Positions 37,681 through 61,137 of a stretch of 64,000 nucleotides of DNA are shown one piece after another. Position numbers and translations under genes: made by a program. Location: positions 2,048,001 through 2,112,000 of the forward strand of contig CH464491.1 in assembly GCA_000002445.1 (NCBI GenBank), in the 5' to 3' direction. This DNA comes from Trypanosoma brucei. Its lineage: Eukaryota. How positions within the stretch are numbered: the first letter of the stretch is position 1; each line of letters opens with the position of its first letter. The notes below the pieces were generated by a model. It did no database searches and was not told the DNA's origin. It saw nothing but the letters and a program-made list of their open reading frames with translations.

Positions 37681-38562
37681 AGGGATCGATGCGCTCATAA
37701 GGCACGCAGCGCATGTGTTTTGGTCCGTATATTTCGTACCTTTCGCAGGCTGGATGGGATTGTGTGCAGCTGCCAACCAAAGTATCTCGTTTTCTACTCT
37801 TATGAGGGGGGGGGGGGGTTGGTTGGTGCCAATAAACTTATTCGGCGGTGTGCCTCTATTCAGGGGATAAAATGCGAAACTGCCGCAAACAAAACTCATC
37901 GCAACCTTTTCTCTTGCTTTTGTCTGTAACACTAGGTGCAGCCCCAAGGGTCAATCTATTGTTTAGCGAAGGCTCGTTGCCAAGTCTTCATGTGACGGTG
38001 CCCCCAACAGCACCTGGAAGTTGTACGGGGAGTGCTTGCCGCTGGAAGTAGCTCTCTCCTATCATTTTTTCTTTGTCCGCCAGGTGGGGTTGTTGAGATG
38101 TTGACGTCCCACAAACACATGTAACGATTTGCGTGGGTTAGTTGGTGCACGCGCACTCCAAATAATTCATGCCCTCGAACAGCCAACGCGATTGGGGCTT
38201 TGGAAATGTGATCTACGCTTGCGCCAACTTTTAGAAGATGTAGAAGAGAAGCCGCATTGCCCAACACCGCCCCAACACTTTAAACACACCAAGCGGCAGC
38301 AGAGTTAGAACTGAGAAACCATCCGGTTGCCCCGAGAAAGGGTACAAACGTGCACGCCGTCAGCACATACTACCATTGGCATCGAAACCATTGCGACAAA
38401 CAAATATAAACCGGCAGGAACCGATAGGAAATTTACGGAAGTAAAACTGTAAGCGCGCGTTCTTCCAAAGCACTGGCAACGCATGAGAAAGTGGGTGTGG
38501 ATATGCACAATTACCGATGGGTCGACGTCCTCCACCATCATCGGGCCCAAACCACATAACAC
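37681..38562. terminator. convergent strand-switch region between the plus and minus PTUs (putative Pol II termination zone)
   Basis: The last plus-strand CDS stops at 37680 and the first minus-strand CDS stops at 38563. There is no ORF and no tRNA-like T-loop in between. The region contains a G13 tract at 37806-37818. Confidence 0.5.
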
Positions 38563-40473
38563 TCACGCCGTCCAGACATCCTTCAAATACCGTTCATCAG
38601 TTGCGAGTTTCTCAAGCAATGCCGTCGCCTCATCCTCCTTCATTGCACCATATTTCTGCGCGATGTCCAGTAGCTGCCTCTCGACATCCCTCGCCATATT
38701 CTTTGCATCCCCGCATACGTAAACATTTCCTCCTCTGCTGATTATTTCCCATACTTCCTTCCCGCGTGCCGCTAAGCGGTGCTGCACATAAACTTTATCC
38801 GCTTGTTCTCTGCTGTAAGCAACATCCCGCACGGAGAGTGCCCCATTCGATAGACACTTCTCCATAAAGTCGGCATATATATGATCCTCCTCACGCCTCC
38901 TGCAACCAAAAAACAAAAGTGCATCACCAACTTTGTTACCCTTTTCCAGCCACGCGCTACGGCGGTGGAGAAATCCAATAAAAGGCGCTACACCCGTGCC
39001 CGGGCCAATCATGATGATTGGTCGATCCTTAGCTCGAAGCGGAAGGTGGAAGTTAGATTTTCGCACAAACACGGGAATGTTTTGACCCACGGCTGCCTGC
39101 TGAAGCAAATTCGTGCAGAGGCCACCCTCGACCACAGCAACAGTAATGGCCACACTCGTCGGGTGGGTCAGAGAATCAGACGAAATGGAAAAATACCGTG
39201 GGGCAATCCGCGGCATCATCTCCAAGAAGAAACTCAGCGGGGGAGACATCGACTTGAATCGCTGCAAAAAGCCAAGGACAGTCCTTAACTCCAAAACAAG
39301 CTTGCCATACGCCTCCACCGACTCGGGTTCAGTACTCAGCAGTTTTAACAAGGTGTCCTTTTCAACGGGATCAGTGCAATGGTGGGCGAAAGCACGCAAA
39401 GTAGACTTCTTGGGGGGCCCGGCAAGATCGATGTACCATGTGAGTGCAGTGCGAATTGACACGCGACAAGGAAAAACGTTCTTGCCAGTTGCTCTGTTCT
39501 GCAGCGAGATGACCTGACTTGATTCTTGCTCGCTCACGCCCAACACCCGCAGATAAGTGTTCACCATTTCGCTGGGGTTACTAGGAAGAACACCGAGGTG
39601 GTCACCAGCCTGGTAGGAGATAACAGTTTCTGATGTATCAAACTCAATTAACCTTGTACTTCTTCCGGTAGCATTGCTCAGCAGCTCCTTGTTCACCTTC
39701 ACTGGTGCCCAAGAAGGCAATCGTTGTGTTGGTTCCAACACTGACGCGAGCTTGGGGAACGGCAACGGGGCCTCTTCCGGAGGTCCCCATAATTTCATTC
39801 GGCATTCGGGTGCCACGGGTTCGGTTGAGTTCGATTTCAGTACTAGAGAAAGTGCGCGTCCCAAGACTGGCCAGAGGTTGTGACACCAGTTATCAAATTC
39901 TTCTTCGATGCTATTTCCACAGTCGCCATAACCGAGGGGATAGAAACGTTGAGCACCTAACTCAGACATGCGGCGGTCCACCGTGATGCCTTCACGGCAA
40001 AAGAACTTGTATTGCCGGTCCCCGAGGGCAAACACTGTGTATTTCACCCCACTTAATTCCTCTCCCACTGCACGGGAGTCGTCTACCAACCACTCATGGA
40101 ACCCGACCATGGTGTCCGTGGGTTCACCCTCACCATACGTGGCGCAGATAATAATGACATATTTTTCCCCTGCCAAGTCGGACGGACGATAATTTTCCAC
40201 GTCAGCAAGTTTCATAGGGACACCCAGTCTCAAGCCCTCTCGCGTAACAGTCTTAGCAAACATTTCAGCAGTACCTGTTTGCGAGCCGAAGAGAACGCGA
40301 ACGTCGACTCGAGAAGACGGTTGTGAAGGATATTGAGCAACCCCTACAACCTGTGGTGCGGCGGTTTTCCCCCTACCCCCACCACCGCGTATGAAAACCC
40401 CGGCAACGAACCATGCAAGGACCGCGATAATGGCGGTGGATATCACGAGGAAAATCATGAGATACAACGCCAA
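38563..40473 (-). CDS. CPR: NADPH-cytochrome P450 reductase
   Basis: N-terminal TM anchor 'MALYLMIFLVISTAIIAVLAWFVAGVFI'. The flavodoxin motif 'VLFGSQTGTAE', FAD-binding 'RYFSISS' and NADPH site 'IMIGPGTGVAPFIGF' are all present. Confidence 0.9.
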   Translation of the reverse strand: MALYLMIFLVISTAIIAVLAWFVAGVFIRGGGGRGKTAAPQVVGVAQYPSQPSSRVDVRVLFGSQTGTAEMFAKTVTREGLRLGVPMKLADVENYRPSDLAGEKYVIIICATYGEGEPTDTMVGFHEWLVDDSRAVGEELSGVKYTVFALGDRQYKFFCREGITVDRRMSELGAQRFYPLGYGDCGNSIEEEFDNWCHNLWPVLGRALSLVLKSNSTEPVAPECRMKLWGPPEEAPLPFPKLASVLEPTQRLPSWAPVKVNKELLSNATGRSTRLIEFDTSETVISYQAGDHLGVLPSNPSEMVNTYLRVLGVSEQESSQVISLQNRATGKNVFPCRVSIRTALTWYIDLAGPPKKSTLRAFAHHCTDPVEKDTLLKLLSTEPESVEAYGKLVLELRTVLGFLQRFKSMSPPLSFFLEMMPRIAPRYFSISSDSLTHPTSVAITVAVVEGGLCTNLLQQAAVGQNIPVFVRKSNFHLPLRAKDRPIIMIGPGTGVAPFIGFLHRRSAWLEKGNKVGDALLFFGCRRREEDHIYADFMEKCLSNGALSVRDVAYSREQADKVYVQHRLAARGKEVWEIISRGGNVYVCGDAKNMARDVERQLLDIAQKYGAMKEDEATALLEKLATDERYLKDVWTA

Positions 40474-41864: not shown

Positions 41865-43097
41865 TTACTCAGCACCCGCAGCGGTTAAAGTTTCGCCCTC
41901 CTTTTCCTTGCTTCTTCTATTCCGCCTTTTCCTATCCGCTCGCCGCTTCTTTCGACGGTTCGCGCGTTTTTCGGCGTCCCTGCATCCTTTATCGTTCACT
42001 GCACTTTCGTCCGAATGATTGTCTAATTCTGCTGTGCGTTTGGGGAGTTTCAGCCCCTTCCCTTTCCGCCCTTCTAGCGTGCCCGAAACACCGTCAGTAT
42101 TACGATGTCCATCAAGATCGTCCAGCTTTGCCGCCTTCTTCTTCGACTGCCGCGAGCGCTTGCGCCGCTTTCCTCCACCGCTTTCGCCTTGTCCACCACC
42201 TTCTCGGGGCGGCGTTTTCGTCGTCCCCGAGCTGACTTCCCGCCTCTGTAAACCTGCCCCCGTCTGCCCCACCGATGTCAACTTCCCTGCATCGTCTTCA
42301 GTCCATTCTCGCACAAGTATCTTCATCGGTTTGGCGTTGGCAGGGGCACCTGCTTTCTTTTCATTCTTGCGCCGGCAGCTGGACCCTTTCTTCTTGCGTT
42401 GGTCCACGCCGGAAACCAAATACTTTACGAGATTTGAAATTTGTTTGCCCTCGCCCTCCTGTGACCCTTGTTGGTGTTGTTCCCGCAGCGATGTAGCGGC
42501 GGCGCCAGCCTGATGGGTTGTAGCCCCGTCCCCAGTATTCCCCCCTTCATGCATCCATCCTTTCGACATGTTATTACCAGCCGTCAACACCTCCCTGTTG
42601 CTTCCCAGCGCAGATACGCAAAAGGCTCTGTAGTTGTCGTCATCTTCGATGGATCCGGCACTAATACTGCGCAACCTATTGACCCAATCCTCTGACACAC
42701 CCCTTTTACTACGCATGCCCGAGGGGATTCTAAGACAAACAGGCGAGAGTTCCACGGTGGATTCCATTACGTTGCAGGTGCCAGCATCACCGGAGTGAAC
42801 CACTTTTCCGTCGAAGGTATCAGCCACAATCTCGAGAGCGCGATCGCACATCGCGAGGTTGCTGTCGGCCTGCTGGCGTGCCGTCGGTTGTATCGTAACG
42901 ACTGCTGTGGAGGGAATGGGGGGCAGGACGCCTTGTTGAGGACGCCCGGGGATTACGTACACCGTCGTTACCTCCTCCACACTATCAGTGGGGCAACCCT
43001 CAACGATGATCCGAGTGATGCTTTCGGCGGTTGTATCATGAGGAAGATGCCGTACTAACAGACGGATGGGGTAGCGTCGAGTCGTTGGTGGTGTCAT
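41865..43097 (-). CDS. candidate Smg4/UPF3-like protein (RRM-like N-domain + basic Lys/Arg-rich tail)
   Basis: 'YPIRLLVRHLPHDTTAESITRII ... IVADTFDGKVVHSGDAGTCNVMESTVELSPV ... IEDDDNYRAFCVSAL' resembles the human UPF3B blocks 'KVVIRRLPPTLTKEQLQEHL ... FRDRFDGYVFLDNKGQEYPAIVEFAPFQK ... IDDDPEYRKFLESYA'. The C-terminal half is highly basic, like UPF3. Confidence 0.45.
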   Translation of the reverse strand: MTPPTTRRYPIRLLVRHLPHDTTAESITRIIVEGCPTDSVEEVTTVYVIPGRPQQGVLPPIPSTAVVTIQPTARQQADSNLAMCDRALEIVADTFDGKVVHSGDAGTCNVMESTVELSPVCLRIPSGMRSKRGVSEDWVNRLRSISAGSIEDDDNYRAFCVSALGSNREVLTAGNNMSKGWMHEGGNTGDGATTHQAGAAATSLREQHQQGSQEGEGKQISNLVKYLVSGVDQRKKKGSSCRRKNEKKAGAPANAKPMKILVREWTEDDAGKLTSVGQTGAGLQRREVSSGTTKTPPREGGGQGESGGGKRRKRSRQSKKKAAKLDDLDGHRNTDGVSGTLEGRKGKGLKLPKRTAELDNHSDESAVNDKGCRDAEKRANRRKKRRADRKRRNRRSKEKEGETLTAAGAE

Positions 43098-43573: not shown

Positions 43574-45289
43574 CTACGCTGCAAAGCGCATCCCACCTAT
43601 TTCTTCCCCAACCACAAAGAGGTCTTCCTCACCTGCATCTGGTACACACGGGAAGACATCCATTTCTTCGTACCTTTCTCTGTACTCCCCAACATGAGAA
43701 GCAGAAGGCATAGCTGAAGCACTTGCGCCTGTGGCCGGGGCTACAGTATGTCCATTTAAGGTGCCAATGAAAGTGAACCCCCGGACCCCGTTCGGTCGCT
43801 CTGCGACGCGAGACATCACTTCCACACCATCATTCGCCAGGGATACGGCGGGAGCAACCGCTTTTGATGTCTCGTGATGTGACTTAAGAGACCTTATGCC
43901 ATTTTGGCCCTTTCTTCTGACCTCAGCAAGCACCTCAGCAGGATACAAAAAACCATCATGCTCCGCTAGATTTGGTGAAGTCACCTGCGATGCGGCAGGG
44001 TTACAACACTGATGCGTGTTGCCTCGACCCGGCCGACCGAAGCGCTCTTCAGCAACTACGCAGCTATCACTGGACGTAGTTGAATTACTAGAAACATACT
44101 CATACCCCGAGGACCCCTCGTCATCAATAAGTAAGGATGGCCACGTTGTGAGTGTTGACGACTCCGAGTCACAACCTATACCATCACCACTATCAGAGAG
44201 AAGCACTACATCTCCGGTGCTGGGTTTCGGTGCCGTCCAGTCCTCGTCGTCATCTAAGAGCAACCGACGTCCCTGTACGACCGTTGTCGTAAGCGGCCGT
44301 GGCGATTTCGGTACTGATCTGCGGTGTCGCTTAGGTGGTGTTTCACACGGTGGTTTTGGCGCCTCGAACGATAACAACGCCTGTTCATTTGCGTCCTTGG
44401 TAACACTCGATCGGCTGCCTCCACGCACTGCTGTTTCCCTCCGAACTCCGGTTGAAGGGCGCGCGACAGGCGCAGGTACATCCACAGACGACATTGCCTT
44501 TATTTCATCCCAAAGGCGGTGCGCCTGCACACCCCTGTAAGTTCGGCCGTTGTAGTGTAACTGCCGTCGGCCCCTCACGGTGCTCCAGCTATGGGGAAAT
44601 GGCATGCCGTTTCGTTGCAGAGGAAGTTTAACACCTTTGCTGCTACCTTTGTTACCCCGATGACGAGTTGTGCGACTCACTGGCTTTTTGCCTGCTTTTT
44701 TGCTGCCTCGGCCTCGGTTATTTGAGGGTTGAGTCGACCTCCTACTCCTCCATTCGCCTTCAGCTACATGGCTTTCAGCGACAGTTGGTGAGAAACTCGT
44801 GACATTGTTACTTTTTCCGGAAGCTTCGGTGTCGATGGGGACCGCGTCCCACAAGACGGTATCTGACGGCTTTTCACTCACGCTGCGGACCGGCGGTCGT
44901 TGTGCCTTAGGAGGCACAGCAAACGGAGCCATAACATTGACCCCAAGTTCGCTCAGCCTAACAATTGCACCGCCGTACCGTCGTTGCTCCGGTGCTGTGG
45001 CTGTGGCGCCACCGTTGGCTTCAGCGCTAATGCCACTTACTGCCGGCGCGGTAGGTGCACCGATGGAAATTGGCGTAGGGTGTTGAGGAGGTGGAGAGTT
45101 CACACCCGTTGGGGGCGCCTGTCCAGCAGCAACCGAAAGCGGTCTAAACACCACGCGAAACCTCCCTGATGGTTTATCACACTCCATGACTAAACCTTCG
45201 GGAAGGCTCAAACCTAGACCTATCATATTGAAAGGAAGATGGGTAATGCAAATGTGAACAACATAATAGCAAGGTCCACACAACAACAT
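43574..45289 (-). CDS. hypothetical Pro/Ser/Arg-rich, largely disordered protein
   Basis: A 571 aa ORF on the PTU strand with low-complexity composition and an acidic 'LLIDDEGSSGYEYV' patch. The start is uncertain. Alternatives are 'MIGLGLS' and 'MECDKPSGRF'. Confidence 0.45.
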   Translation of the reverse strand: MLLCGPCYYVVHICITHLPFNMIGLGLSLPEGLVMECDKPSGRFRVVFRPLSVAAGQAPPTGVNSPPPQHPTPISIGAPTAPAVSGISAEANGGATATAPEQRRYGGAIVRLSELGVNVMAPFAVPPKAQRPPVRSVSEKPSDTVLWDAVPIDTEASGKSNNVTSFSPTVAESHVAEGEWRSRRSTQPSNNRGRGSKKAGKKPVSRTTRHRGNKGSSKGVKLPLQRNGMPFPHSWSTVRGRRQLHYNGRTYRGVQAHRLWDEIKAMSSVDVPAPVARPSTGVRRETAVRGGSRSSVTKDANEQALLSFEAPKPPCETPPKRHRRSVPKSPRPLTTTVVQGRRLLLDDDEDWTAPKPSTGDVVLLSDSGDGIGCDSESSTLTTWPSLLIDDEGSSGYEYVSSNSTTSSDSCVVAEERFGRPGRGNTHQCCNPAASQVTSPNLAEHDGFLYPAEVLAEVRRKGQNGIRSLKSHHETSKAVAPAVSLANDGVEVMSRVAERPNGVRGFTFIGTLNGHTVAPATGASASAMPSASHVGEYRERYEEMDVFPCVPDAGEEDLFVVGEEIGGMRFAA

Positions 45290-45599
45290 GCACCTTTCAC
45301 TACAACATCTTCACAATCCCTTAGCCATCAACAACAGGAGTCATTCGGTTTACGAGGGAATACAACCAACGTGCCAACGCATCAACATCCCCCAAACAAT
45401 GAAAAAAAAAAATTCAGCACTAACGAAAAATATTCCACCCCCAGGGAAAAAGATTGAGCCACAAAGCTACATCATTGAACAAGCACACAAACACTGCCAG
45501 TAAGCTCGCTGCTCACACAATTTAAACGAACCAAATTTGCTGCAGTAATTATAAAAAACGGCATTATAAAACAAACGATTCAAACACCTGCCAGTACAC

Positions 45600-47561
45600 T
45601 TACAGATCGTCCATGGGTTGTGGCTTGTCGCCTCCGCCGGCGGATTGGTAAGTCTTCTGGATGATGGGGTTGGTCACGCTCTGCAGAGTTTCCAGGGCAG
45701 TTTTGTACTCCTCCTTTTCGGCGTTCGGATTTTCGTCAAGGAAGCGGATCGCCTCCGCAACAGCGGTCTCCACTGCAGCCTTGTCATTGGGGTCAAGTTT
45801 CCCACCAAGCTTATCCTTATCGTTCACTTGGTTGCGTAGGGAATACGCAACGCTCTCCAGCGAGTTACGCGCATCCACACGCTCGCGCACCTTGCGGTCC
45901 TCGTCCTCGAACTCTGCCGCTTCGCGCACCATACGCTCAATCTCCTCCTCGCTCAGGCGACCCTTGTCGTTGGTGATGGTGATCTCTTCCTTCTTTCCAG
46001 ACGACTTGTCCATAGCGCTCACCTGCAGGATGCTGTTCTCGTCGACGTCAAATGTCACTTCGATTTGTGGCACACCACGCGCGGCAGGAGGAATTCCCGA
46101 CAACTCGAATTTGCCCAGGAGGCGGTTATCCTTTGTCAGCTGGCGCTCACCCTCATACACTTGGATAAGCACACCCGGCTGGTTGTCCGCATGGGTAGAA
46201 AAGACCTGACTCTTCTTGGTGGGGATCTGTGTGTTACGCTCGATGAGTTTTGTCATGACACCACCTACAGTTTCAATACCAAGCGACAGTGGGATCACAT
46301 CTACAAGCACAACGCGCCCGCCAACCTCGCTTTCACCGGTTAGCACCGCAGCTTGCACAGCGGCACCATATGCTACGGCTTCATCGGGGTTAATACCACG
46401 GTTCAGTTCCTTCCCACCGAAGAAGTCACTGATCAGTTGTTGTACCTTCGGCACACGTGTGGATCCACCAACGAGCACAATCTCGTGGATGTCACTCTTC
46501 TTCAGCTTCGCATCCTCCAGCACACGTTGCACGGGCACGAGTGTCCCCTTGAAGAGGTCCATGTTCAGCTCCTCAAACTTCGCACGTGTGATTTTCTCGC
46601 TGAAATCGAAGCCCTCCGTAAGGCTGTCCACCTCCACACGCGCCTCGGGATGAGACGACAGCTGTCGCTTCGCAGCCTCACATGCCTTGCGAAGACGTGC
46701 CAGTGCCTTTTGGTCCTTACTGATGTCAACATTCTTTTTCTTCTTCAGCATGTCCACAAAGTGTCGCATCATGTTGTTATCAAAGTCCTCACCACCAAGG
46801 TGCGTATCACCGTTTGTCGCCACAACTTCGAAGAAGCCCTCATCGATTGTCAGCAGTGACACATCAAAGGTACCACCACCAAGATCGAACACCAGGATAT
46901 TCTTCTCACCGGCTTTGTTTAGCCCATATGCGATGGCGGCTGCGGTGGGCTCATTGATGATGCGCACTACGTTCAAACCGGCGATGGTCCCAGCATCCTT
47001 TGTCGACTGCCGTTGTGCGTCATTGAAGTACGCAGGTACCGTTACAACAGCGTTTTTCACTTTCTCGCCAAGGTACGTTTCTGCAATTTCCTTCATCTTC
47101 TGCAGCACCATGGCACTGATCTCTTCTGGTGTGAACTGTTTCTTTTTCCCACCCACCATCACTTGTACCTTCGGCTTCCCGTCGCGGTCCGCAATGACCT
47201 CATACGACAGCAGTTTCTTGTCAGCCTGCACTGCCGCATCCGTGTACTTGCGGCCAATCAGCCTCTTGATGGTGTAGATTGTATTATGCGGATTCTGTGG
47301 AAGCTGATTCTTCGCACCGTCACCGATCAGCCGCTCTGTGTCGGTAAAGGCGACGACGGAAGGTGTGATGCGGTTACCCATCTCGTTCGGGATGATATGC
47401 ACATCACCCTTCTGCCACACACCCACAACGGAGTATGTTGTGCCGAGGTCGATGCCCACGCATGGTGCTTCCACCTTGCCGCCACTTTCGGGTGCTGCTG
47501 AGACGGCTGCAACCGTCACAGTCAGGAACACCGCTGCAGTGGTCAGCCACATCCTCGACAT
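45600..47561 (-). CDS. BiP: BiP/GRP78 (ER-lumenal Hsp70), copy 1
   Basis: Signal peptide '[22 protein letters not shown]'. Hsp70 signatures 'IDLGTTYS' and 'DLGGGTFD' are present. The C-terminal ER-retention signal 'MDDL' matches the published T. brucei BiP retention motif. Confidence 0.95.
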
Positions 47562-47659
47562 CGGGAGGGGGATTATCTTGAACTTAATATTAGTGTTAGG
47601 TAAGTAGGTTTGTGTGTTTTAGTATGCTTAGCTTATCTTTCCAAAACAACGCGAAACGT

Positions 47660-47790
47660 GAAAATATGTGGAGAGGAGGTGTGGTGGGGCGATGAAAAGG
47701 GACAAATAGGGAAAAGGAAATGGTAAAACGCAGATGGCACACGGAAAGGGCAAGGCGGAAGAAGGGGTCGCCTCCAGTGCTGCCATGGGG
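47660..47790 (-). promoter_or_regulatory. polypyrimidine tract / trans-splice acceptor region upstream of BiP copy 1
   Basis: Read on the minus strand, this is a run of about 120 nt of C/T-rich sequence (the plus strand reads 'ggaggtgtggtggggcgatgaaaagggacaaatagggaaaagg...'). It lies about 100-230 nt upstream of the BiP ATG. The identical tract occurs at 55950-56080 upstream of copy 2. Confidence 0.5.
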
Positions 47791-47960
47791 CTCCTGCAAG
47801 TAGAGGTTATGTGCTCTCTAGATAAAAATGCGCGTGAAGTCTGCCGCTACGGGGCAATACGCACCACAGAATTTACATAATTAAAACGAGGGATGTAAGT
47901 CCTTCCTGTACACCCAAAACTGTAGAAGTTCCAAAAAAAAATGTGCAGAGTGGGGCTTCC

Positions 47961-49652: not shown

Positions 49653-50252
49653 TCATGAAGAGTCACAGAGTCCCGTGTACCTGTTCGCTTGGTTATTCAT
49701 CAACAATGCAATGATAAGCCCATAGAGGCCCAGGGCCTCGGAAAAGATCAACATGAGCACCATGGCCACGAAAACCTGATCCTGCTTGCCATAAGCCCGG
49801 GTGGTTGTGTCACCCACCACACCGATGGAAAGCCCTGCGGCAAGCGAGGCGAGTCCCGCCGCCATTCCCGCGCCCAAATGCAGGTTGGCAGAGAAGGTAG
49901 AATAGGAGTAGAGCTCCGTTTTGATGTTGTTGTTTATTATAACTGCCACGATCAAACCATAGATGCCGAGGATGCCAGCCATAACAACTGGAACGATGCC
50001 GCGCATGATCTTCTCGGGAGCCAGAAGTCCTAGTTGGGCTAATCCGACGCCTGACTTTGCAGCACCGTAGGCAGAGCCCAGATTAGCAAAGATAAGAGCA
50101 ACAGCCACACCCAGAGAGCCGAAAAAGCCAGCGCTTTGTGGGTACATTCGGGCCAAACAGGCCTCTTTCCGAGTAGTATTGCCGTCACCGACCGTAGCAA
50201 AGACAGTGGTGACACATATCACGGAGAGTAAACCTATAAAAGAGTATTTCAT
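49653..50252 (-). CDS. V-type H+-ATPase proteolipid subunit (c/c''-type, about 200 aa)
   Basis: Proteolipid motifs 'GSAYGAAKSGVGLAQLG' and 'IVPVVMAGILGIYGLIVAVII', plus a second repeat 'GAGMAAGLASLAAGLSIG'. Start placed at the internal Met 'MKYSF' because the upstream ORF part lacks hydrophobic or proteolipid character. Confidence 0.8.
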   Translation of the reverse strand: MKYSFIGLLSVICVTTVFATVGDGNTTRKEACLARMYPQSAGFFGSLGVAVALIFANLGSAYGAAKSGVGLAQLGLLAPEKIMRGIVPVVMAGILGIYGLIVAVIINNNIKTELYSYSTFSANLHLGAGMAAGLASLAAGLSIGVVGDTTTRAYGKQDQVFVAMVLMLIFSEALGLYGLIIALLMNNQANRYTGLCDSS

Positions 50253-50902
50253 AGGTGCAGCAAACGACGCACAACCTAAAGTGAGCAATGTTCGCGCATA
50301 CAAAGATAACAGTGGAGACAATAAAGGGGAAGAGATATGATAAAGATGAAGGTTGCGCGAACTGCCGCTCGCAGAAAAAAGGGGGTGGAGACGCAAAACC
50401 TCTTGCAGCATGCACACGGAAGGTAGACAATCCACGAATAGTCAGATGGCCTTGGCACAACAAAAGCAAAGTACTGTCCAACTCTCCTTGTGCGAAATGC
50501 CCAACTAAAAGGGATGAGAAGCAGTCGCGATAAATGTGGTGTCGCGACGCGTTTCCTTAACGTTAGTTAGCATAACTCACCCATCCTCCGCGACGCAATC
50601 TCCAAAAAAAAAACGGCTACCCGCATAAATACACATCAACCAAACAACACTCCAGCCAGATGGATGTGATACGCATGAAAAAAGTACGCGATTTAGTGCG
50701 ACTTATAATTGATATTGAAAACAAGTCACGCAAACACAAACTGTTAAGAACACGGCACAGATTGCATCTGGCTGAGTAAAGGGCTCATCGCACTCTCAAC
50801 TCTTGCCGATACTTCCCTGTCGACTCGAAGATAATCCCTAGCCGCTGGCCGCGTTAAGGTGGAATACTGTGAGTTAAGGAGCCGGTCTCCACGTCCAAAT
50901 CC

Positions 50903-51859
50903 CTAACGATAAATTGCTCCCTAAACTATGATTCGCTAAAGCACAAAGCAGAGTGATAGGGAGGAGAGTTAAGGTGGAATGACACACGCTGCTCACGACA
51001 AGATGTAAGAGAAAAACACGCTACACCGCGGTGCGGCACAGCTCACAGGGTGATAGGGTGAGAAGGATTTCCTACAAATATAAAACCTGCGACACCAGTG
51101 AGAAAATGGGCTCTCTCACTTAGTTCAGTCGAGCGCTCACAAATAAAAAGAAATAAATAATCAAAACAAATAAAATAGAAAAATTGATGAATCATATATA
51201 TATTTATATGTTTTCGTTAATTAAAAAAAATCCCTCCTGTACATGGTATGTCGTGCCGCCATCCTCTCCCGGGGTCATTTTCGTATCACCAGTGGATGAC
51301 AGAACATTATAATGTCATTGCCGAGTGCCTCCAGGTAAAACTTACTGATAGTTTATTCATTCTTAGAAACCTGCAATTGCAACAGACACCCACCCCAACA
51401 TCATTGTGATAGCACCAACCGGAGCCATAGGACCCACTTGTTTGCCAGGGACTCCCAAGCAGATGGCATAGACGGTACCACAAAAGATCGTTGTTCCGGC
51501 GAACAATAACACGAAACTGCGGTTGAGCCACCTGGCGGCGCTGCTTTCCGGCTCGGCAATCTTGAGGGCAGCAAAGATAGCCATCATCGCGGCAGTGTGA
51601 ATAAGGTTAAATTGGACAGCGTGGTCCCATGCGAGCTTCAACTTATCAGAAAGGTTAGGGTCCAGCCAGTGCGAGCCGGCGGCTGCGGCCACGACACCGA
51701 TGAGACCGAGGACGCCAATGAGGATCATCGGAGTATCTCTTACTTTGCCCATGGTTGTAGTGTTACTTGTTTTTAGGTTTGGTGTGTTCAATAACGATAA
51801 TTAACCTTGCTGTTACTTCCATTAGTTCAAACAAAATGGAAGGAGAGAAAGAATAATAC
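50903..51859. repeat. direct repeat unit A (957 bp) carrying DUF423 gene copy 1
   Basis: Near-identical to 52089-53045 (offset 1186 bp). The identity break-points are at 50902/52088 and 51860/53046. Confidence 0.85.
51363..51791 (-). CDS. DUF423/TMEM256-like small membrane protein, copy 1
   Basis: 'FAGTTIFCGTVYAICLG' and 'APVGAITMMLGWVSVAIAGF' parallel human TMEM256 'ASGTTLFCTSFYYQALSG' and 'APAGGTLLLLGWLALAL'. There are four predicted TM helices. Confidence 0.7.
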   Translation of the reverse strand: MNTPNLKTSNTTTMGKVRDTPMILIGVLGLIGVVAAAAGSHWLDPNLSDKLKLAWDHAVQFNLIHTAAMMAIFAALKIAEPESSAARWLNRSFVLLFAGTTIFCGTVYAICLGVPGKQVGPMAPVGAITMMLGWVSVAIAGF

Positions 51860-52088
51860 CCGTCAGGCCCTCGAGGAATGCATATACGTTGGGGTACTGG
51901 CTGATAAAAGTAAGGAAAATGCATAGTAAATGATGCAGACACTGATCACTAGATGTTAATCACGTAGCCCTAATATCCGAATACCTCCTCGTTAACATCA
52001 ATTGCACTGCTGTGAAAAAGATAAATCTACCGCCAAATCCAAAGAACTGACCGACACAACAAGAAATTTGGTTTTCGCATAAAACCCT

Positions 52089-53045
52089 CTAACGATAAAT
52101 TGCTCCCTAAACTATGATTCGCTAAAGCACAAAGCAGAGTGATAGGGAGGAGAGTTAAGGTGGAATGACACACGCTGCTCACGACAAGATGTAAGAGAAA
52201 AACACGCTACACCGCGGTGCGGCACGGCTCACAGGGTGATAGGGTGAGAAGGATTTCCTACAAATATAAAACCTGCGACACCAGTGAGAAAATGGGCCCT
52301 CTCACTTAGTTCAGTCGAGCGCTCACAAATAAAAAGAAATAAATAATCAAAACAAATAAAATAGAAAAATTGATGAATCATATATATATTTATATGTTTT
52401 CGTTAATTAAAAAAAATCCCTCCTGTACATGGTATGTCGTGCCGCCATCCTCTCCCGGGGTCATTTTCGTATCACCAGTGGATGACAGAACATTATAATG
52501 TCATTGCCGAGTGCCTCCAGGTAAAACTTACTGATAGTTTATTCATTCTTAGAAACCTGCAATTGCAACAGACACCCACCCCAACATCATTGTGATACCA
52601 CCAACCGGAGCGAAGTGCCCCACTTGTTTGCCAGGGACTCCCAAGCAGATGGCATAGACGGTACCGCAAAAGATCGTTGTTCCGGCGAACAATAACACGA
52701 AACTGCGGTTGAGCCACCTGGCGGCGCTGCTTTCCGGCTCGGCAATCTTGAGGGCAGCAAAGATAGCCATCATCGCGGCAGTGTGAATAAGGTTAAATTG
52801 GACAGCGTGGTCCCATGCGAGCTTCAACTTATCAGAAAGGTTAGGGTCCAGCCAGTGCGAGCCGGCGGCTGCGGCCACGACACCGATGAGACCGAGGACG
52901 CCAATGAGGATCATCGGAGTATCTCTTACTTTGCCCATGGTTGTAGTGTTACTTGTTTTTAGGTTTGGTGTGCTCAATAACGATAATTAACCTTGCTGTT
53001 ACTTCCATTAGTTCAAACAAAATGGAAGGAGAGAAAGAATAATAC
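52089..53045. repeat. direct repeat unit B (957 bp) carrying DUF423 gene copy 2
   Basis: Near-identical to 50903-51859. The two units are separated by a 229 bp unique spacer (51860-52088). Confidence 0.85.
52549..52977 (-). CDS. DUF423/TMEM256-like small membrane protein, copy 2
   Basis: It differs from copy 1 at only a few residues (N2S, and 'GPMAPVGAI' versus 'GHFAPVGGI'). Confidence 0.7.
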   Translation of the reverse strand: MSTPNLKTSNTTTMGKVRDTPMILIGVLGLIGVVAAAAGSHWLDPNLSDKLKLAWDHAVQFNLIHTAAMMAIFAALKIAEPESSAARWLNRSFVLLFAGTTIFCGTVYAICLGVPGKQVGHFAPVGGITMMLGWVSVAIAGF

Positions 53046-53873
53046 TTCCTGTATAACTATTTCTTTCCATTTAAAACAAATACAAATAGGCGCACACACC
53101 CAGCACAAACTTTTCTTCTTGGCTAACCAGAGGCAAAAAATTATCAAATTTTGTTGTTTTTTTTCCCGAACCTCCTCAAATATAAATTTCAGAGAAATGG
53201 TTGCCGTATGCAGAGCAGGCACCTTAATTTTCCTTTTTTTTTTAATTTCCCACCTCCTTTCCGCAAGACGAAGAACTGGTATACGTACCTTAGACATCTC
53301 TTAGGATCACTTCGTCTGAAGGGCACGAACAAAACTAGGAAAAGTAGAGTTAGAAAAAAAAGATGGCCAGTTAAATTTTCTTTGAACCACCGGTGTGCCC
53401 TTCGTTATTCTTCCTCCGTGTTCCAGCACTCTGTGGTTTGATTACAGAGGTCAGAGAACAGGTATGCCGCACATTTTATTAACCAATCTTTCAGTTCAGT
53501 CGTCTCCCATTCAATTTTTCTCTACCAATCTCACCCTATTACCCACTTCAATTGCTTACCTTTTACCTTCATATCCCCATGACACCGGTGATGCCTTTGT
53601 ATTGTTTGCTGCTTTCGCAGAAAGTAGATTAAACATCTATTTGACACACGAAGAAAATAGCACGTGCTTCAACTAAAGTCAGTAAGTTGAGAATAAACAG
53701 CAGCCACAATTACAAGCAACTCCATTTCTTCCCACCATTCATCGACCAGTATCGCACACCAAGCGCTTCCAACCACTCTTCTTGAACAACTGCAGGCCAA
53801 CCATTCTACCATATCCACTCTGCACTTCAATAAGTATACAAAGCAAAAAAAAATAATAATAATAACCACTCAC

Positions 53874-56207
53874 ACACCTGCCAGTACACTTACAGATCGT
53901 CCATGGGTTGTGGCTTGTCGCCTCCGCCGGCGGATTGGTAAGTCTTCTGGATGATGGGGTTGGTCACGCTCTGCAGAGTTTCCAGGGCAGTTTTGTACTC
54001 CTCCTTTTCGGCGTTCGGATTTTCGTCAAGGAAGCGGATCGCCTCCGCAACAGCGGTCTCCACTGCAGCCTTGTCATTGGGGTCAAGTTTCCCACCAAGC
54101 TTATCCTTATCGTTCACTTGGTTGCGTAGGGAATACGCAACGCTCTCCAGCGAGTTACGCGCATCCACACGCTCGCGCACCTTGCGGTCCTCGTCCTCGA
54201 ACTCTGCCGCTTCGCGCACCATACGCTCAATCTCCTCCTCGCTCAGGCGACCCTTGTCGTTGGTGATGGTGATCTCTTCCTTCTTTCCAGACGACTTGTC
54301 CATAGCGCTCACCTGCAGGATGCTGTTCTCGTCGACGTCAAATGTCACTTCGATTTGTGGCACACCACGCGCGGCAGGAGGAATTCCCGACAACTCGAAT
54401 TTGCCCAGGAGGCGGTTATCCTTTGTCAGCTGGCGCTCACCCTCATACACTTGGATAAGCACACCCGGCTGGTTGTCCGCATGGGTAGAAAAGACCTGAC
54501 TCTTCTTGGTGGGGATCTGTGTGTTACGCTCGATGAGTTTTGTCATGACACCACCTACAGTTTCAATACCAAGCGACAGTGGGATCACATCTACAAGCAC
54601 AACGCGCCCGCCAACCTCGCTTTCACCGGTTAGCACCGCAGCTTGCACAGCGGCACCATATGCTACGGCTTCATCGGGGTTAATACCACGGTTCAGTTCC
54701 TTCCCACCGAAGAAGTCACTGATCAGTTGTTGTACCTTCGGCACACGTGTGGATCCACCAACGAGCACAATCTCGTGGATGTCACTCTTCTTCAGCTTCG
54801 CATCCTCCAGCACACGTTGCACGGGCACGAGTGTCCCCTTGAAGAGGTCCATGTTCAGCTCCTCAAACTTCGCACGTGTGATTTTCTCGCTGAAATCGAA
54901 GCCCTCCGTAAGGCTGTCCACCTCCACACGCGCCTCGGGATGAGACGACAGCTGTCGCTTCGCAGCCTCACATGCCTTGCGAAGACGTGCCAGTGCCTTT
55001 TGGTCCTTACTGATGTCAACATTCTTTTTCTTCTTCAGCATGTCCACAAAGTGTCGCATCATGTTGTTATCAAAGTCCTCACCACCAAGGTGCGTATCAC
55101 CGTTTGTCGCCACAACTTCGAAGAAGCCCTCATCGATTGTCAGCAGTGACACATCAAAGGTACCACCACCAAGATCGAACACCAGGATATTCTTCTCACC
55201 GGCTTTGTTTAGCCCATATGCGATGGCGGCTGCGGTGGGCTCATTGATGATGCGCACTACGTTCAAACCGGCGATGGTCCCAGCATCCTTTGTCGACTGC
55301 CGTTGTGCGTCATTGAAGTACGCAGGTACCGTTACAACAGCGTTTTTCACTTTCTCGCCAAGGTACGTTTCTGCAATTTCCTTCATCTTCTGCAGCACCA
55401 TGGCACTGATCTCTTCTGGTGTGAACTGTTTCTTTTTCCCACCCACCATCACTTGTACCTTCGGCTTCCCGTCGCGGTCCGCAATGACCTCATACGACAG
55501 CAGTTTCTTGTCAGCCTGCACTGCCGCATCCGTGTACTTGCGGCCAATCAGCCTCTTGATGGTGTAGATTGTATTATGCGGATTCTGTGGAAGCTGATTC
55601 TTCGCACCGTCACCGATCAGCCGCTCTGTGTCGGTAAAGGCGACGACGGAAGGTGTGATGCGGTTACCCATCTCGTTCGGGATGATATGCACATCACCCT
55701 TCTGCCACACACCCACAACGGAGTATGTTGTGCCGAGGTCGATGCCCACGCATGGTGCTTCCACCTTGCCGCCACTTTCGGGTGCTGCTGAGACGGCTGC
55801 AACCGTCACAGTCAGGAACACCGCTGCAGTGGTCAGCCACATCCTCGACATCGGGAGGGGGATTATCTTGAACTTAATATTAGTGTTAGGTAAGTAGGTT
55901 TGTGTGTTTTAGTATGCTTAGCTTATCTTTCCAAAACAACGCGAAACGTGAAAATATGTGGAGAGGAGGTGTGGTGGGGCGATGAAAAGGGACAAATAGG
56001 GAAAAGGAAATGGTAAAACGCAGATGGCACACGGAAAGGGCAAGGCGGAAGAAGGGGTCGCCTCCAGTGCTGCCATGGGGCTCCTGCAAGTAGAGGTTAT
56101 GTGCTCTCTAGATAAAAATGCGCGTGAAGTCTGCCGCTACGGGGCAATACGCACCACAGAATTTACATAATTAAAACGAGGGATGTAAGTCCTTCCTGTA
56201 TACCCAA
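53874..56207. repeat. 2334 bp duplicated segment B (BiP copy 2 unit)
   Basis: See segment A. Confidence 0.9.
53890..55851 (-). CDS. BiP: BiP/GRP78 (ER-lumenal Hsp70), copy 2, identical to copy 1
   Basis: The 653 aa translation is identical to copy 1, including the signal peptide and the C-terminal MDDL. Confidence 0.95.
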
Positions 56208-56838
56208 CAACACCGTTTACCTGCATTGATATTTTTTGTTTGGCCTCCCTTTCGGTAAGTCACTAGTAAATTGCTGTTGCGCAATAAATAACTATGCGTG
56301 AAACTCGTGCCGTGTACACGGTTACTGTGTTTCTTCTGAAACGGTCTTAGTAAGCCTGCTGCCATCGTAAACACAGTAACATCTTCCTGCTGTCATGTAT
56401 AAAAAGTGGAGGAACTGTTAGGTTTGAAAGCGCACTTCATTTATCTTTGCGAATCGCATGCTCATCTGTGGTATTGTTACGTCGATTCTATATTATCAGG
56501 CGTCAGCGCATATTTCCACGACAGGGCGTATTGCTACTGCTGCAATAGCCTCTCCAGTTTGGCGAAGCCATATATTTGTGAAAGGAAAGAATAACTACCT
56601 GATGTTTTGAAGATGAATGAGTTTTGGGATTTCCCCCCCCTTTGCAATGTGCATATACAAAAAAAAAGGCACGTACAAGTTTTATTTATGTTCAGTAGGT
56701 GGTGGGCGCTGTCCGAATAAGCTCATGGGTGTGTTCGGTTCTTGTTATGAAACATATACTACACAACTAGAGGGAAACATAATCCCCTCTCGTCCTTTAA
56801 CCTCTTTGCTCTCGCCTCTGCTAATGTTTGCTATCGTT

Positions 56839-58953: not shown

Positions 58954-61137
58954 TTAAACAAGGTTAAACATGGATCTGAGCGCTCCCTTGTTCACCTTAC
59001 CTGTTGTGTTCCGCGGCACCTCCGGCACAATGATGTACCGCGCAGGGCATTTGTAATATGCGAGGACCTCGTGAACCACGGCAGACAGTTCCTGTGTCAA
59101 CTCCGGTGATTCATAATGGTTAAAATTGTCGGGTACATTCCACTTCCTCAGCGCCGCAGCCTGTAATGAGGCGATAGCCACCACACTTTGACCTTTAACC
59201 TCGTCCTTGCATCCCACAACTGCAACCTCGTAAAAAATATCCCGGAAGGTAAGCAGCGCAGCTTCAATCTCCAACGCAGACAGCTTGAATCCAGACGACT
59301 TGATTATATCAACACTCGTCCGACCAAGAATGGTGTAAACTACACTGTCACAGTCACTGTTAAACATCTTCACTCCCACAGTATCACCCGTATCAAAGAA
59401 GCGTTGACCACTGCTGTTGACAACCAACTCCTTCTTGGTCGCTGCTGGATTATCCCAATAGCGGTCAAACACGGACTTGGAGGAAACACCAAGGCGACCA
59501 ACGGTGTCATACTCCGCCGGTTTTCCCTTCCCATCCGCCTTTTCACCACCTTCATCTGTCACGGTTTCCTCTGGGTTGTTGAATACATACGTTTGCACAG
59601 TTGGAAGGGCCTGCCCCACTGTTCCAGGAACCCTTCTCGTTACGGGTCGGAGGGGCTGACCAAGCGCCATCCCGATTTCAGTCATTCCATAACGCTCCAG
59701 TAGAATGTGGCCGGTTAGCTCATGGAAGGCGTGAAGGGTCGGTGTGGGGAGAGCGGCGCTACCGCTCACAATCAATCGGACACTTTGAGAGACCGCTGTT
59801 TTAAACCCCCGTTTTTCAATAGGTGACATTTTTTCGTTAATAGCAGCAATTAATTTCGTGTAGAGCGTGGGCACGCCCATCAATAGAGTGATATCACCCC
59901 GCTCAAGGCGGCGTGCGATGCGAATTGGGTCGTCAAACTTCGTAATCACACATCGGGCACCCGACGCCAGGGAGCAAAGAAGGATATTAACAAGCCCATG
60001 TATATGATGCATGGGCAACATATGGAGGACAGTGTCGTCGGAGGACCATTGCCACACATCCTGGAGGACATTTACCATATTTCGCACGGTCCCGTGGGTG
60101 TGGACGACACCCTTCGGTTTGGCTGTTGTGCCTGATGTATACAACATTAGGCAATCATCATTCCACCCTGGACGTGACCGTGGGTCCTCCACCCAGCGGC
60201 GGTGCACCGGATTGAGAGAGTGAAGATTTTCTGTATCGTAATACATTTCACCAGCGTCACCATCAGCTGCATGTGTGACGGCGTTATTTTCTTTGAACTG
60301 TTCACTCATCATGCTTTGACGGCGTGCTTCACAACGCTTGGCGTCGGCAGCCTTTTCAAGTTCCAGTCGATCGATAACATCGTGTGCATCATTAATTTTC
60401 CTCGATTCAGCCTTCGCGGGGATGTGTTCTGGTTGAAGCAGGGTTCCCGTCTCCTCTTCCTTTTCACGTTGGGCTTCGACAGAATCAAGAAGTGAGTCGA
60501 GGTCAAACATCGTTTCTACGTGGTGTGTTGACGAGGTTGCACTTCTGCATGTGGGCCACCTTCCGCATTCCAGTTCCCGCACCAAAAGATTTTTATAATC
60601 CGCCGGAAACTTATCTTCAAACGCCCAGGTGTCCCCCAACACTGCCCTGCTCTTACTATGCCCAAGAATGTACGACAACTCGCCCGCATACTTCTGCGAA
60701 GCGGACATGGGAACAGCCATCTGGTTGAGTGACCACGCGGCCAACAGGGACACAACGAAAGCGTAACCAGCATTTCCTGTTATCGCCAAATTATATGTTC
60801 CATCATCCTTAAGAAAATCACAACTCAGAACCCCTCCCTCTTCATTACTGTAAACACTCCTCACATTGTCTGGCCTTGGTGGCTGCAGCCAACAGAGCGA
60901 CGGCATTCGCTGGATTTTCGCTAAAAGCTCCCGTCGTTGCACGATGACATTCGCCACTGCAAGAACATCTTTTCGTAAGCGTCCAAACGAGTAACACATC
61001 GGCTCAGCACCGGCTACCTCGACTACTAGAGCATCTTTTCGCGCCGGCGCGGAAAAAACGCTTTCTAAAACGGTGTTGTAGCTGAAGAGTGTGGAAAAGG
61101 GAATTTTGTCTAACCGGCGCCCGACAAGAGTAAACAT
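58954..61137 (-). CDS. AMP-dependent acyl-CoA synthetase/ligase family protein (with internal charged insertion)
   Basis: AMP-binding motif 'LMLYTSGTTAKPKGVVHTHG', plus 'ERYGMTE' and 'FDTGDT' motifs and a C-terminal 'TTGKVNKGALR'. An acidic Lys/Glu-rich insertion of about 120 aa sits in the N-terminal half. Confidence 0.85.
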   Translation of the reverse strand: MFTLVGRRLDKIPFSTLFSYNTVLESVFSAPARKDALVVEVAGAEPMCYSFGRLRKDVLAVANVIVQRRELLAKIQRMPSLCWLQPPRPDNVRSVYSNEEGGVLSCDFLKDDGTYNLAITGNAGYAFVVSLLAAWSLNQMAVPMSASQKYAGELSYILGHSKSRAVLGDTWAFEDKFPADYKNLLVRELECGRWPTCRSATSSTHHVETMFDLDSLLDSVEAQREKEEETGTLLQPEHIPAKAESRKINDAHDVIDRLELEKAADAKRCEARRQSMMSEQFKENNAVTHAADGDAGEMYYDTENLHSLNPVHRRWVEDPRSRPGWNDDCLMLYTSGTTAKPKGVVHTHGTVRNMVNVLQDVWQWSSDDTVLHMLPMHHIHGLVNILLCSLASGARCVITKFDDPIRIARRLERGDITLLMGVPTLYTKLIAAINEKMSPIEKRGFKTAVSQSVRLIVSGSAALPTPTLHAFHELTGHILLERYGMTEIGMALGQPLRPVTRRVPGTVGQALPTVQTYVFNNPEETVTDEGGEKADGKGKPAEYDTVGRLGVSSKSVFDRYWDNPAATKKELVVNSSGQRFFDTGDTVGVKMFNSDCDSVVYTILGRTSVDIIKSSGFKLSALEIEAALLTFRDIFYEVAVVGCKDEVKGQSVVAIASLQAAALRKWNVPDNFNHYESPELTQELSAVVHEVLAYYKCPARYIIVPEVPRNTTGKVNKGALRSMFNLV

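Follow-up and report, generated by a model that had tools for sequence, protein, structure and literature searches.

The question raised by this locus was whether Trypanosoma brucei encodes a UPF3 protein, the member of the UPF1-UPF2-UPF3 core in nonsense-mediated mRNA decay (NMD) that has been reported missing from this organism. The locus lies in a 64,000-nt stretch of contig CH464491.1 (GenBank assembly GCA_000002445.1, positions 2,048,001 to 2,112,000 of the forward strand), hereafter the window, and the gene in question occupies positions 41865 to 43097 of it. No UPF3 match was found in T. brucei by Delhi et al. (2011), UPF3 was recorded in all groups except Excavata by Causier et al. (2017), and T. 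brucei was listed with only UPF1 and UPF2 by Lloyd (2018). Gabiatti et al. (2025), from BLASTp with human UPF3, stated a 'complete loss of UPF3 in the Kinetoplastida', which formed part of their argument that trypanosomes dismantle the exon-junction complex (EJC)/NMD pathway. These four reports bear out an earlier reading of the window (the original prediction), which remarked on the difficulty of finding UPF3 in kinetoplastids. Based on profile comparisons, it was concluded that the T. brucei gene is a genuine but very divergent member of the UPF3 family, and this finding contradicts the published statements that UPF3 was lost in the Kinetoplastida.

The original prediction had placed a coding sequence for 410 amino acids here and had left its strand unstated. 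The open reading frame (ORF) proved to be real and was located on the minus strand:

41865..43097, minus strand: complete coding sequence, 410 aa plus stop, equal to XP_828831.1 / Q384R2

It was read as a single ATG-to-stop frame without interruption, when the plus-strand translation of the same interval was riddled with stops. The product was 100% identical to T. b. brucei TREU927 XP_828831.1 (UniProt Q384R2) and also identical to a T. equiperdum protein, and the T. b. gambiense DAL972 counterpart differed by 2 aa. All copies were annotated as 'hypothetical protein, conserved' or 'uncharacterized', hence no different existing annotation stood against a UPF3 assignment. The start codon was supported by the N-termini of the orthologues (MTPPTTRRYPIRLL versus MTPQQLGRCPVRLL versus MAPQIGIRQPIRLL). 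By gene counting from two anchors, the ORF is probably Tb927.11.7440. The anchors were the BiP genes, which we take to be Tb927.11.7460/7510 (the literature shows these ids only cited in endoplasmic reticulum-related papers), and ACS8 (Tb927.11.7530), a named acyl-CoA ligase. Tb927.11.7440 was not mentioned in the main texts or supplements of the literature searched.

Further, the protein was compared with Pfam-A. The sole family matched was Smg4_UPF3 (PF03467), with 15.3 bits and an E-value of 0.021 over residues 12-162, which is under the gathering score of 24 bits. The T. brucei sequence thus did not pass the Pfam check on its own, but three syntenic orthologues from other Trypanosoma species did: T. 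theileri (45.2 bits, E 1.4e-11), T. grayi (32.5 bits) and T. conorhini (26.2 bits). The proteins of T. rangeli (21.4 bits) and T. vivax (18.1 bits) remained below the gathering score, and Smg4_UPF3 was the only credible Pfam match in all five orthologues. When a profile of the six N-terminal domains was searched against the sequences of the PDB, the top two matches were human UPF3B (7NWU, E 0.001) and UPF3A (7QG6, E 0.0014), with canonical RRMs ranked below them.

Profile-profile evidence was obtained with hhalign, run locally with the six-species trypanosome family profile against profiles of bona fide UPF3s, among them euglenozoan sequences taken from the S3 Table of PMC11888146. The probability was 94.3% against 15 metazoan UPF3s (E 1.1e-7, 125 aligned columns), 97.9% against five euglenid/diplonemid UPF3s (E 5.5e-13, 157 columns), 98.1% against ten other eukaryotic UPF3s (E 7.6e-14, 125 columns) and 98.8% against all UPF3s combined (E 4.4e-17, 124 columns). 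The observed hhalign score was 57.0, compared with 13.2 ± 2.4 (maximum 22.6) in 200 column shuffles of the query alignment, in which the probability never exceeded 2.0%. Additionally, a pan-eukaryote UPF3 hidden Markov model (HMM) was scanned over the six frames of the window; among 443 ORFs of at least 60 aa, the 410-aa ORF was the only match (E 1.1e-4), and the next best ORF gave 0.49. The significant profile match on which the original prediction depended was hence found, and homology of the 410-aa protein to UPF3 is well supported and very likely.

Single-sequence comparisons failed completely, which explains why the BLAST screens in print found nothing. A single-sequence phmmer search against 16 UPF3s gave only E-values above 6, phmmer of the T. 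brucei protein against the PDB returned nothing relevant, and neither the full-length nor the N-terminal T. theileri query matched anything in the PDB.

The conserved sequence was distributed over the protein as follows, all on the minus strand:

42741..43067, minus strand: RRM-like (RRM-L) domain, residues 11-119, topology b1-a1-b2-b3-a2-hairpin-b4
42573..42668, minus strand: NOPS-like linker and helix, residues 144-175, from the alignments and a predicted helix at 154-175
42441..42572, minus strand: Gly/Gln/Ala-rich low-complexity linker, residues 176-219, predicted disorder, pLDDT below 50 at 179-217
42411..42440, minus strand: fourth conserved block, I220-S-N-L223-V224-K-Y-L227-V-S, at the start of a predicted helix (222-248)
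41868..42410, minus strand: Lys/Arg/Glu-rich C-terminal tail, residues 230-410, 28.7% Lys+Arg

The RRM-L domain carried the motif IRLLVRHLP, in which R12 and R16 corresponded to human K52 and R56; F95-D96-G97 corresponded to human F114-D115-G116, and V115-E116-x-x-P119 to V131-E132-x-x-P135. Non-aromatic residues stood where canonical RNP1 and RNP2 have aromatic ones. Right after this domain stood the pattern G-[TS]-I-x-x-D-x-x-Y-x-x-F, within the segment S144...G148-S149-I150-E151-D152-D153-D154-N155-Y156-R157-A158-F159-C160. Its counterpart in human UPF3B, D148...G152-T153-I154-D-D-D157-P-E-Y160-R-K-F163-L, is the high-affinity UPF2-binding segment. The original prediction had matched three blocks by eye, all of which were located in the protein: IRLLVRHLPHD at residues 11-21, FDGKVVHSGDAGT...VELSP at 95-119 and DDDNYRAF at 152-159. 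These were the same blocks that HMMER and HH-suite aligned, all in register, to VVIRRLP, FDGYVF...VEFAP and GTIDDDPEYRKF of human UPF3B.

The length of the Gly/Gln/Ala-rich linker differed among species in the family alignment. Behind it, the fourth block (I220-SNLVKYLV) was followed by a Lys/Arg/Glu-rich stretch, QRKKKGSSCRRKNEKK, of a kind common to all six proteins. The consensus of the block in the six proteins was S-L-L-V-x-x-L-L (also given as S-L-L-V-Q-x-L-L), with L223, V224 and L227 invariant. It was aligned by a MAFFT merge with the human 'TTPLLSFLK' (TPLLxFLK type; stretch TTPLLSFLKNKQRMREEKRE / TTPLLSFLKNKQRMREEK), and with the Euglena 'APLVQELL' (APLVQELLERRR / APLVQELLERRRH) inside the part that hhalign aligned confidently with euglenozoan UPF3 (query 11-211). 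The long Lys/Arg-rich tail noticed in the original prediction was confirmed, and by itself it is weak evidence; it contained three clusters resembling nuclear localisation signals (NLS), namely RRKNEKK (242), KRRKR (310) and RRKKRRADRKRR (381). No EJC-binding motif was found in the tails of the six proteins, as local alignment with the human motif peptide (checked against PDB 2XB2 chain G) was no better than with shuffles, of which a fraction of 0.23-0.97 reached the observed score. A resemblance to this motif ('RPxxxLxxPxG') had been suspected in the tails by eye and was rejected by the same shuffle test. The motif is a metazoan feature that does not define the family and is absent in yeast; a protein devoid of it is consistent with EJC-independent NMD.

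The structure was predicted with AlphaFold2. A six-sequence alignment gave a b-a-b-b-a-b topology with a pLDDT of 68. A model from 21 sequences, extended to residue 250, reached a core pLDDT of 86-94 and added a beta-hairpin and two helices, one at 154-175 where NOPS-L lies and one at 222-248 for the fourth block, with 179-217 disordered. The latter model is not independent evidence, because UPF3s were present in its alignment. Foldseek comparison of the predicted structure with the PDB gave no significant match. The structure prediction that had been suggested as a check thus confirmed, at the level of a model, an RRM fold compatible with UPF3, but it cannot single out UPF3 among other RRM folds.

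In human UPF3B, the residues that contact UPF2 are K52, R56, R57, E132, F136, Q137 and K138 on the RRM-L domain and D148, G152, T153, I154, D157, Y160, F163 and Y167 on NOPS-L; mutations of Y160 and F163 lowered the affinity 24- to 39-fold, when that of Y167 had almost no cost (PMC9177958). The mapping from the merged MAFFT alignment of human UPF3B with the six Trypanosoma proteins, human residue first and T. brucei residue second, was:

K52, R12: Arg in five of six species
R56, R16: invariant in all six
R57, H17: His or Arg
E132, E116: invariant in all six
F136, Q137, K138, respectively V120, C121, L122: not conserved (V/A, C/S/Y and L/F across species)
D148, S144: Glu in four other species
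G152, G148: invariant
T153, S149: Ser or Thr
I154, I150: invariant
D157, D153: invariant
Y160, Y156: invariant
F163, F159: invariant
Y167, A163: not conserved; Leu in arthropod UPF3s too

Among the six trypanosome proteins, G148, I150, E151, D153, Y156, F159 and C160 of the NOPS-like segment were invariant. Over 21 trypanosome and metazoan sequences, the invariant positions were R16, L18, P19, A65, F95, D96, G97, V115, E116, P119, I150, D153, Y156 and F159, and the G148 column was replaced in 3 of 15 metazoan UPF3s. Judged by sequence conservation, the chief high-affinity UPF2 determinants are retained and one peripheral patch (F136-Q137-K138) is not.

The relatives were collected by an exhaustive phmmer search with residues 1-175 of the T. 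brucei protein against 1.84 billion representatives. Five were found, with E-values from 1.5e-18 to 3.7e-16, in T. vivax, T. theileri, T. conorhini, T. grayi and T. rangeli; overall identity among the six proteins was 31-41%. Four further matches (E 9e-5 to 9e-4) were treated as noise, as they consisted of multiple stretches and the two examined were repetitive. A word-indexed homologue search returned only the T. brucei cluster, and only T. grayi when the family profile was used. The gene order in T. grayi was the same as in the window (ATP-synt_C ... HSP70, one or more unknown genes, the UPF3-like gene), and the Trypanosoma relatives are therefore orthologues. Those of T. theileri and T. conorhini are automatically named 'UPF3 domain-containing protein' in UniProt. 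The T. grayi orthologue (JMRU01000120.1, 9485-10222) is annotated with 245 aa as against 358-588 aa elsewhere, and the translation of the gene at this locus mismatched the query; probably its gene model is truncated, or the contig has an error within the basic tail.

The family was hence found in six Trypanosoma species, all six of which have UPF1. According to the S3 table of Gabiatti et al. (2025), UPF1 occurs in every listed Trypanosoma species except T. congolense. The UPF2 rows read from that table give sequences for six Trypanosoma species, T. brucei, T. grayi, T. theileri and T. vivax among them, and have no T. congolense entry. Leishmania, Crithidia, Leptomonas, Phytomonas, Paratrypanosoma and other lineages are recorded there as having neither UPF1 nor UPF2. 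The UPF3-like family was not found in the lineages devoid of UPF1 and UPF2 (Leishmaniinae, Phytomonas, Paratrypanosoma) in one phmmer search, for which the query was the most divergent member. The same search gave no match in bodonids that retain UPF1, and a T. congolense copy could hide inside the 50% cluster of T. brucei in the phmmer search set. No free-living kinetoplastid relatives appeared in a metagenome scan.

The protein shares with human UPF3B and UPF3A (PF03467; PDB 1UW4, 7NWU, 7QG6) the RRM-like domain, the NOPS-like linker and helix, the TPLL-type block and the Lys/Arg/Glu-rich helical region; the equivalents of K52, R56, E132, G152, T153, I154, D157, Y160 and F163 are kept, and the canonical RNP aromatics are missing in both. 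It differs from them by an identity of only ~20%, by long insertions, which lie in the b2-b3 region, in the a2 region and ahead of NOPS-L, by a low-complexity linker where UPF3B and UPF3A have their first coiled-coil segment, by its shorter length, and by the absence of the F136-Q137-K138 patch, Y167 and the EJC-binding motif. Phylogenetically, the closest accepted UPF3s are those of euglenids and diplonemids (Euglena gracilis/longa, Eutreptiella, Hemistasia, Rhynchopus; PMC11888146), which were found by BLAST with human UPF3, whereas the trypanosome proteins were missed in the same screen (kinetoplastid rows ND/A) (PMC11888146). In a single-sequence phmmer comparison, euglenozoan UPF3 and the T. 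brucei protein gave E-values above 1. The trypanosome family and euglenozoan UPF3 have in common R-H-L-P in beta1, F-C after the conserved aromatic and a P/S-L-V-Q-E-L-L block, whereas metazoan UPF3 has no R-H-L-P in beta1 and F-L in place of F-C. These motifs lend only qualitative support to vertical descent, because HMM-versus-sequence scores showed no special affinity of the trypanosome family for euglenozoan over other UPF3s. Upf3p of Saccharomyces cerevisiae likewise works without an EJC-binding motif and is basic, NLS-rich and very divergent from metazoan UPF3, but its direct sequence similarity to the trypanosome family was too low to be useful (7.5 bits).

We proposed that the protein is the trypanosome orthologue of UPF3, including UPF2 binding and a function in NMD. 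This full statement is favored with modest confidence; binding and the NMD role were deduced from residue conservation and phyletic pattern, and the localisation is putative. The N-terminal ~175 residues would form an RRM-like domain of the UPF3 type and, after it, the NOPS-like linker and helix. If human UPF3B/UPF3A serve as a guide, RRM-L and NOPS-L would together grip UPF2 (TbUPF2, Tb927.11.6410) at its third MIF4G domain: R12, R16 and E116 on the sheet would form salt bridges, and the helix would insert I150, Y156 and F159 into a hydrophobic cleft. A UPF1-dependent, EJC-independent NMD-like pathway operates in T. brucei (Gabiatti et al. 2025). Through UPF2, the protein may join UPF1 (Tb927.5.2140) in this pathway, and as it has no EJC-binding motif, its recruitment would not depend on the exon-junction complex. 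Like the middle domain of UPF3B, the helix that starts at the SNLVKYL block could, together with the basic tail, bind RNA or ribosomes non-specifically and provide signals for nuclear import.

The explanation that competed best was that a UPF3 descendant has been repurposed, so that it neither binds UPF2 nor acts in NMD and has a nuclear or nucleolar RNA-associated role, such as one in RNA processing or in a specialised decay body. Several observations speak for it: no other copy has diverged as far as that of T. brucei (15.3 bits), the RRM-L contact patch has lost some of its residues (F136/Q137/K138, D148), T. brucei can dispense with NMD factors, and NMD-like folds have already been co-opted there for expression-site RNA decay (VEX2, ESAP1, ESB2). 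The divergence, the dispensability and the co-option make repurposing plausible, and the tail full of NLS-like basic clusters would suit it. However, the equivalents of I154, D157, Y160, F163, R56 and E132 are invariant in six species, which is hard to explain without a conserved partner, and the detected distribution parallels that of UPF1 and UPF2. Repurposing was thus regarded as unlikely, with a real share of the probability left to it.

An ordinary or orphan RRM protein, resembling UPF3 through a shared fold and chance motifs, was considered very improbable. The predicted fold is shared, as stated above, but no RRM-clan Pfam family, RRM_1 included, was matched at E≤10 by the T. brucei protein or at E≤1 by the orthologues, and the canonical RNP aromatics are absent. 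Moreover, similarity was strongest not in the RRM core but beyond it, in the UPF3-specific GTIEDDxxYxxF (NOPS-L) and SLLVxxLL blocks, and the best hhalign E-value was 4e-17, when shuffles did not exceed 2%.

Slightly less credit still was given to a protein of the DBHS/paraspeckle type (NONO, SFPQ, PSPC1). In such proteins, too, a NOPS-type linker and extended helices come after an RRM, and UPF3 has been reported to share this architecture, but they carry two RRMs and an obligate dimerisation coiled coil, when the trypanosome protein has a single RRM-like domain. The matches to NONO were non-significant (E ~0.8) and confined to residues 6-40 (beta1), the NOPS-like segment fitted the UPF3 consensus residue by residue, and Pfam gave Smg4_UPF3 only.

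Identity with ESAP1 can practically be dismissed. According to a 2026 paper, ESAP1 is expression-site-body associated and trypanosome-restricted; its RRM-like domain was overlaid on that of UPF3B (7NWU), and its C-terminus is basic/RS. Its gene, Tb927.10.11600, is on chromosome 10 and has nicotinate phosphoribosyltransferase, an SKP1-like protein and a Ca-ATPase as neighbours, whereas the 410-aa ORF lies on chromosome 11 near ACS8, between cytochrome-P450 reductase and an unknown 571-aa protein followed by tandem BiP genes, and exhaustive HMMER searching found no second T. brucei family protein at E≤1e-3. The 410-aa gene was thus distinguished from ESAP1 by gene id, chromosome and neighbours. 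A UPF3-like fold is reported for ESAP1, but HMMER did not detect it as a paralogue, and its authors state that it is not a homologue of NMD factors; T. brucei may nevertheless carry two UPF3-like proteins, the 410-aa protein and ESAP1.

A wider scenario is doubtful and is given here as speculation. Trypanosoma might have kept a complete UPF1-UPF2-UPF3 core, in which UPF3 would have diverged beyond the reach of BLAST rather than having been lost at the base of Kinetoplastea, and Leishmaniinae, among other lineages, would later have lost it along with UPF1 and UPF2. ESAP1 (UPF3-like fold), VEX2 (UPF1-like helicase) and ESB2 (SMG6-like PIN) would then represent an anciently duplicated NMD module co-opted for expression-site RNA decay, and the 410-aa gene would be the 'housekeeping' UPF3 paralogue of ESAP1.

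In the literature searched, no paper links the T. brucei protein to UPF3. The novelty is the link of a known family to this gene and to the claim in the literature, not a new kind of protein or system, and the knowledge was partly latent in databases through the automatic UniProt names of two orthologues. A UPF3-family protein that keeps the UPF2-binding residues alters the NMD inventory, and the trypanosome pathway may hold the three factors of the canonical core while having no link to the EJC. The finding supplies a concrete candidate gene (probably Tb927.11.7440) for depletion, tethering and interaction work, for which a UPF1 degron line and green fluorescent protein reporters with premature termination codons (PTC-GFP) exist. 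Further, the absence of UPF3 in other protists, where it was concluded from BLAST screens, may be a false negative.

The gene sits in a minus-strand cluster that begins at a convergent strand switch (37.7-38.6 kb). The other features of this cluster were:

38563..40473, minus strand: NADPH-cytochrome-P450 reductase, neighbour
43574..45289, minus strand: 571-aa protein without a Pfam match, immediate upstream neighbour
45600..47561 and 53890..55851, minus strand: BiP/HSP70 genes, coding sequences of 1962 nt, 100% identical
58954..61137, minus strand: AMP-binding acyl-CoA ligase, further along the cluster

The strand-switch region corresponded to positions 37681-38562, with large ORFs on the plus strand up to 37680 and on the minus strand from 38563; the last plus-strand ORF before it encodes a ThiF-family protein and the first minus-strand ORF the cytochrome-P450 reductase. 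No tRNA genes were found anywhere in the window. The 571-aa neighbour is called as two genes in T. grayi, and if it is Tb927.11.7450, as gene counting suggests, its TrypTag entry reads 'nucleolus periphery points'.

The BiP/HSP70 genes belong to a tandem duplication (45574-47920 and 53864-56211, minus strand) of a ~2.35 kb block, the 99.8% identity of which suggests ongoing gene conversion. Between the two copies lies a second tandem repeat of ~965 bp (50897-51859 and 52082-53045, 98.9% identical), each unit of which contains a 142-aa ORF (51363..51791 and 52549..52977, minus strand), hydrophobic by eye and with no assigned family. Finally, a 260-aa ORF at 49653-50435 (minus strand) matched ATP-synt_C (V-ATPase proteolipid) only in its C-terminal part, with the best stretch at 187-246. 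The T. grayi ATP-synt_C gene encodes 199 aa, and the real start of the T. brucei gene is probably downstream of the listed GTG.

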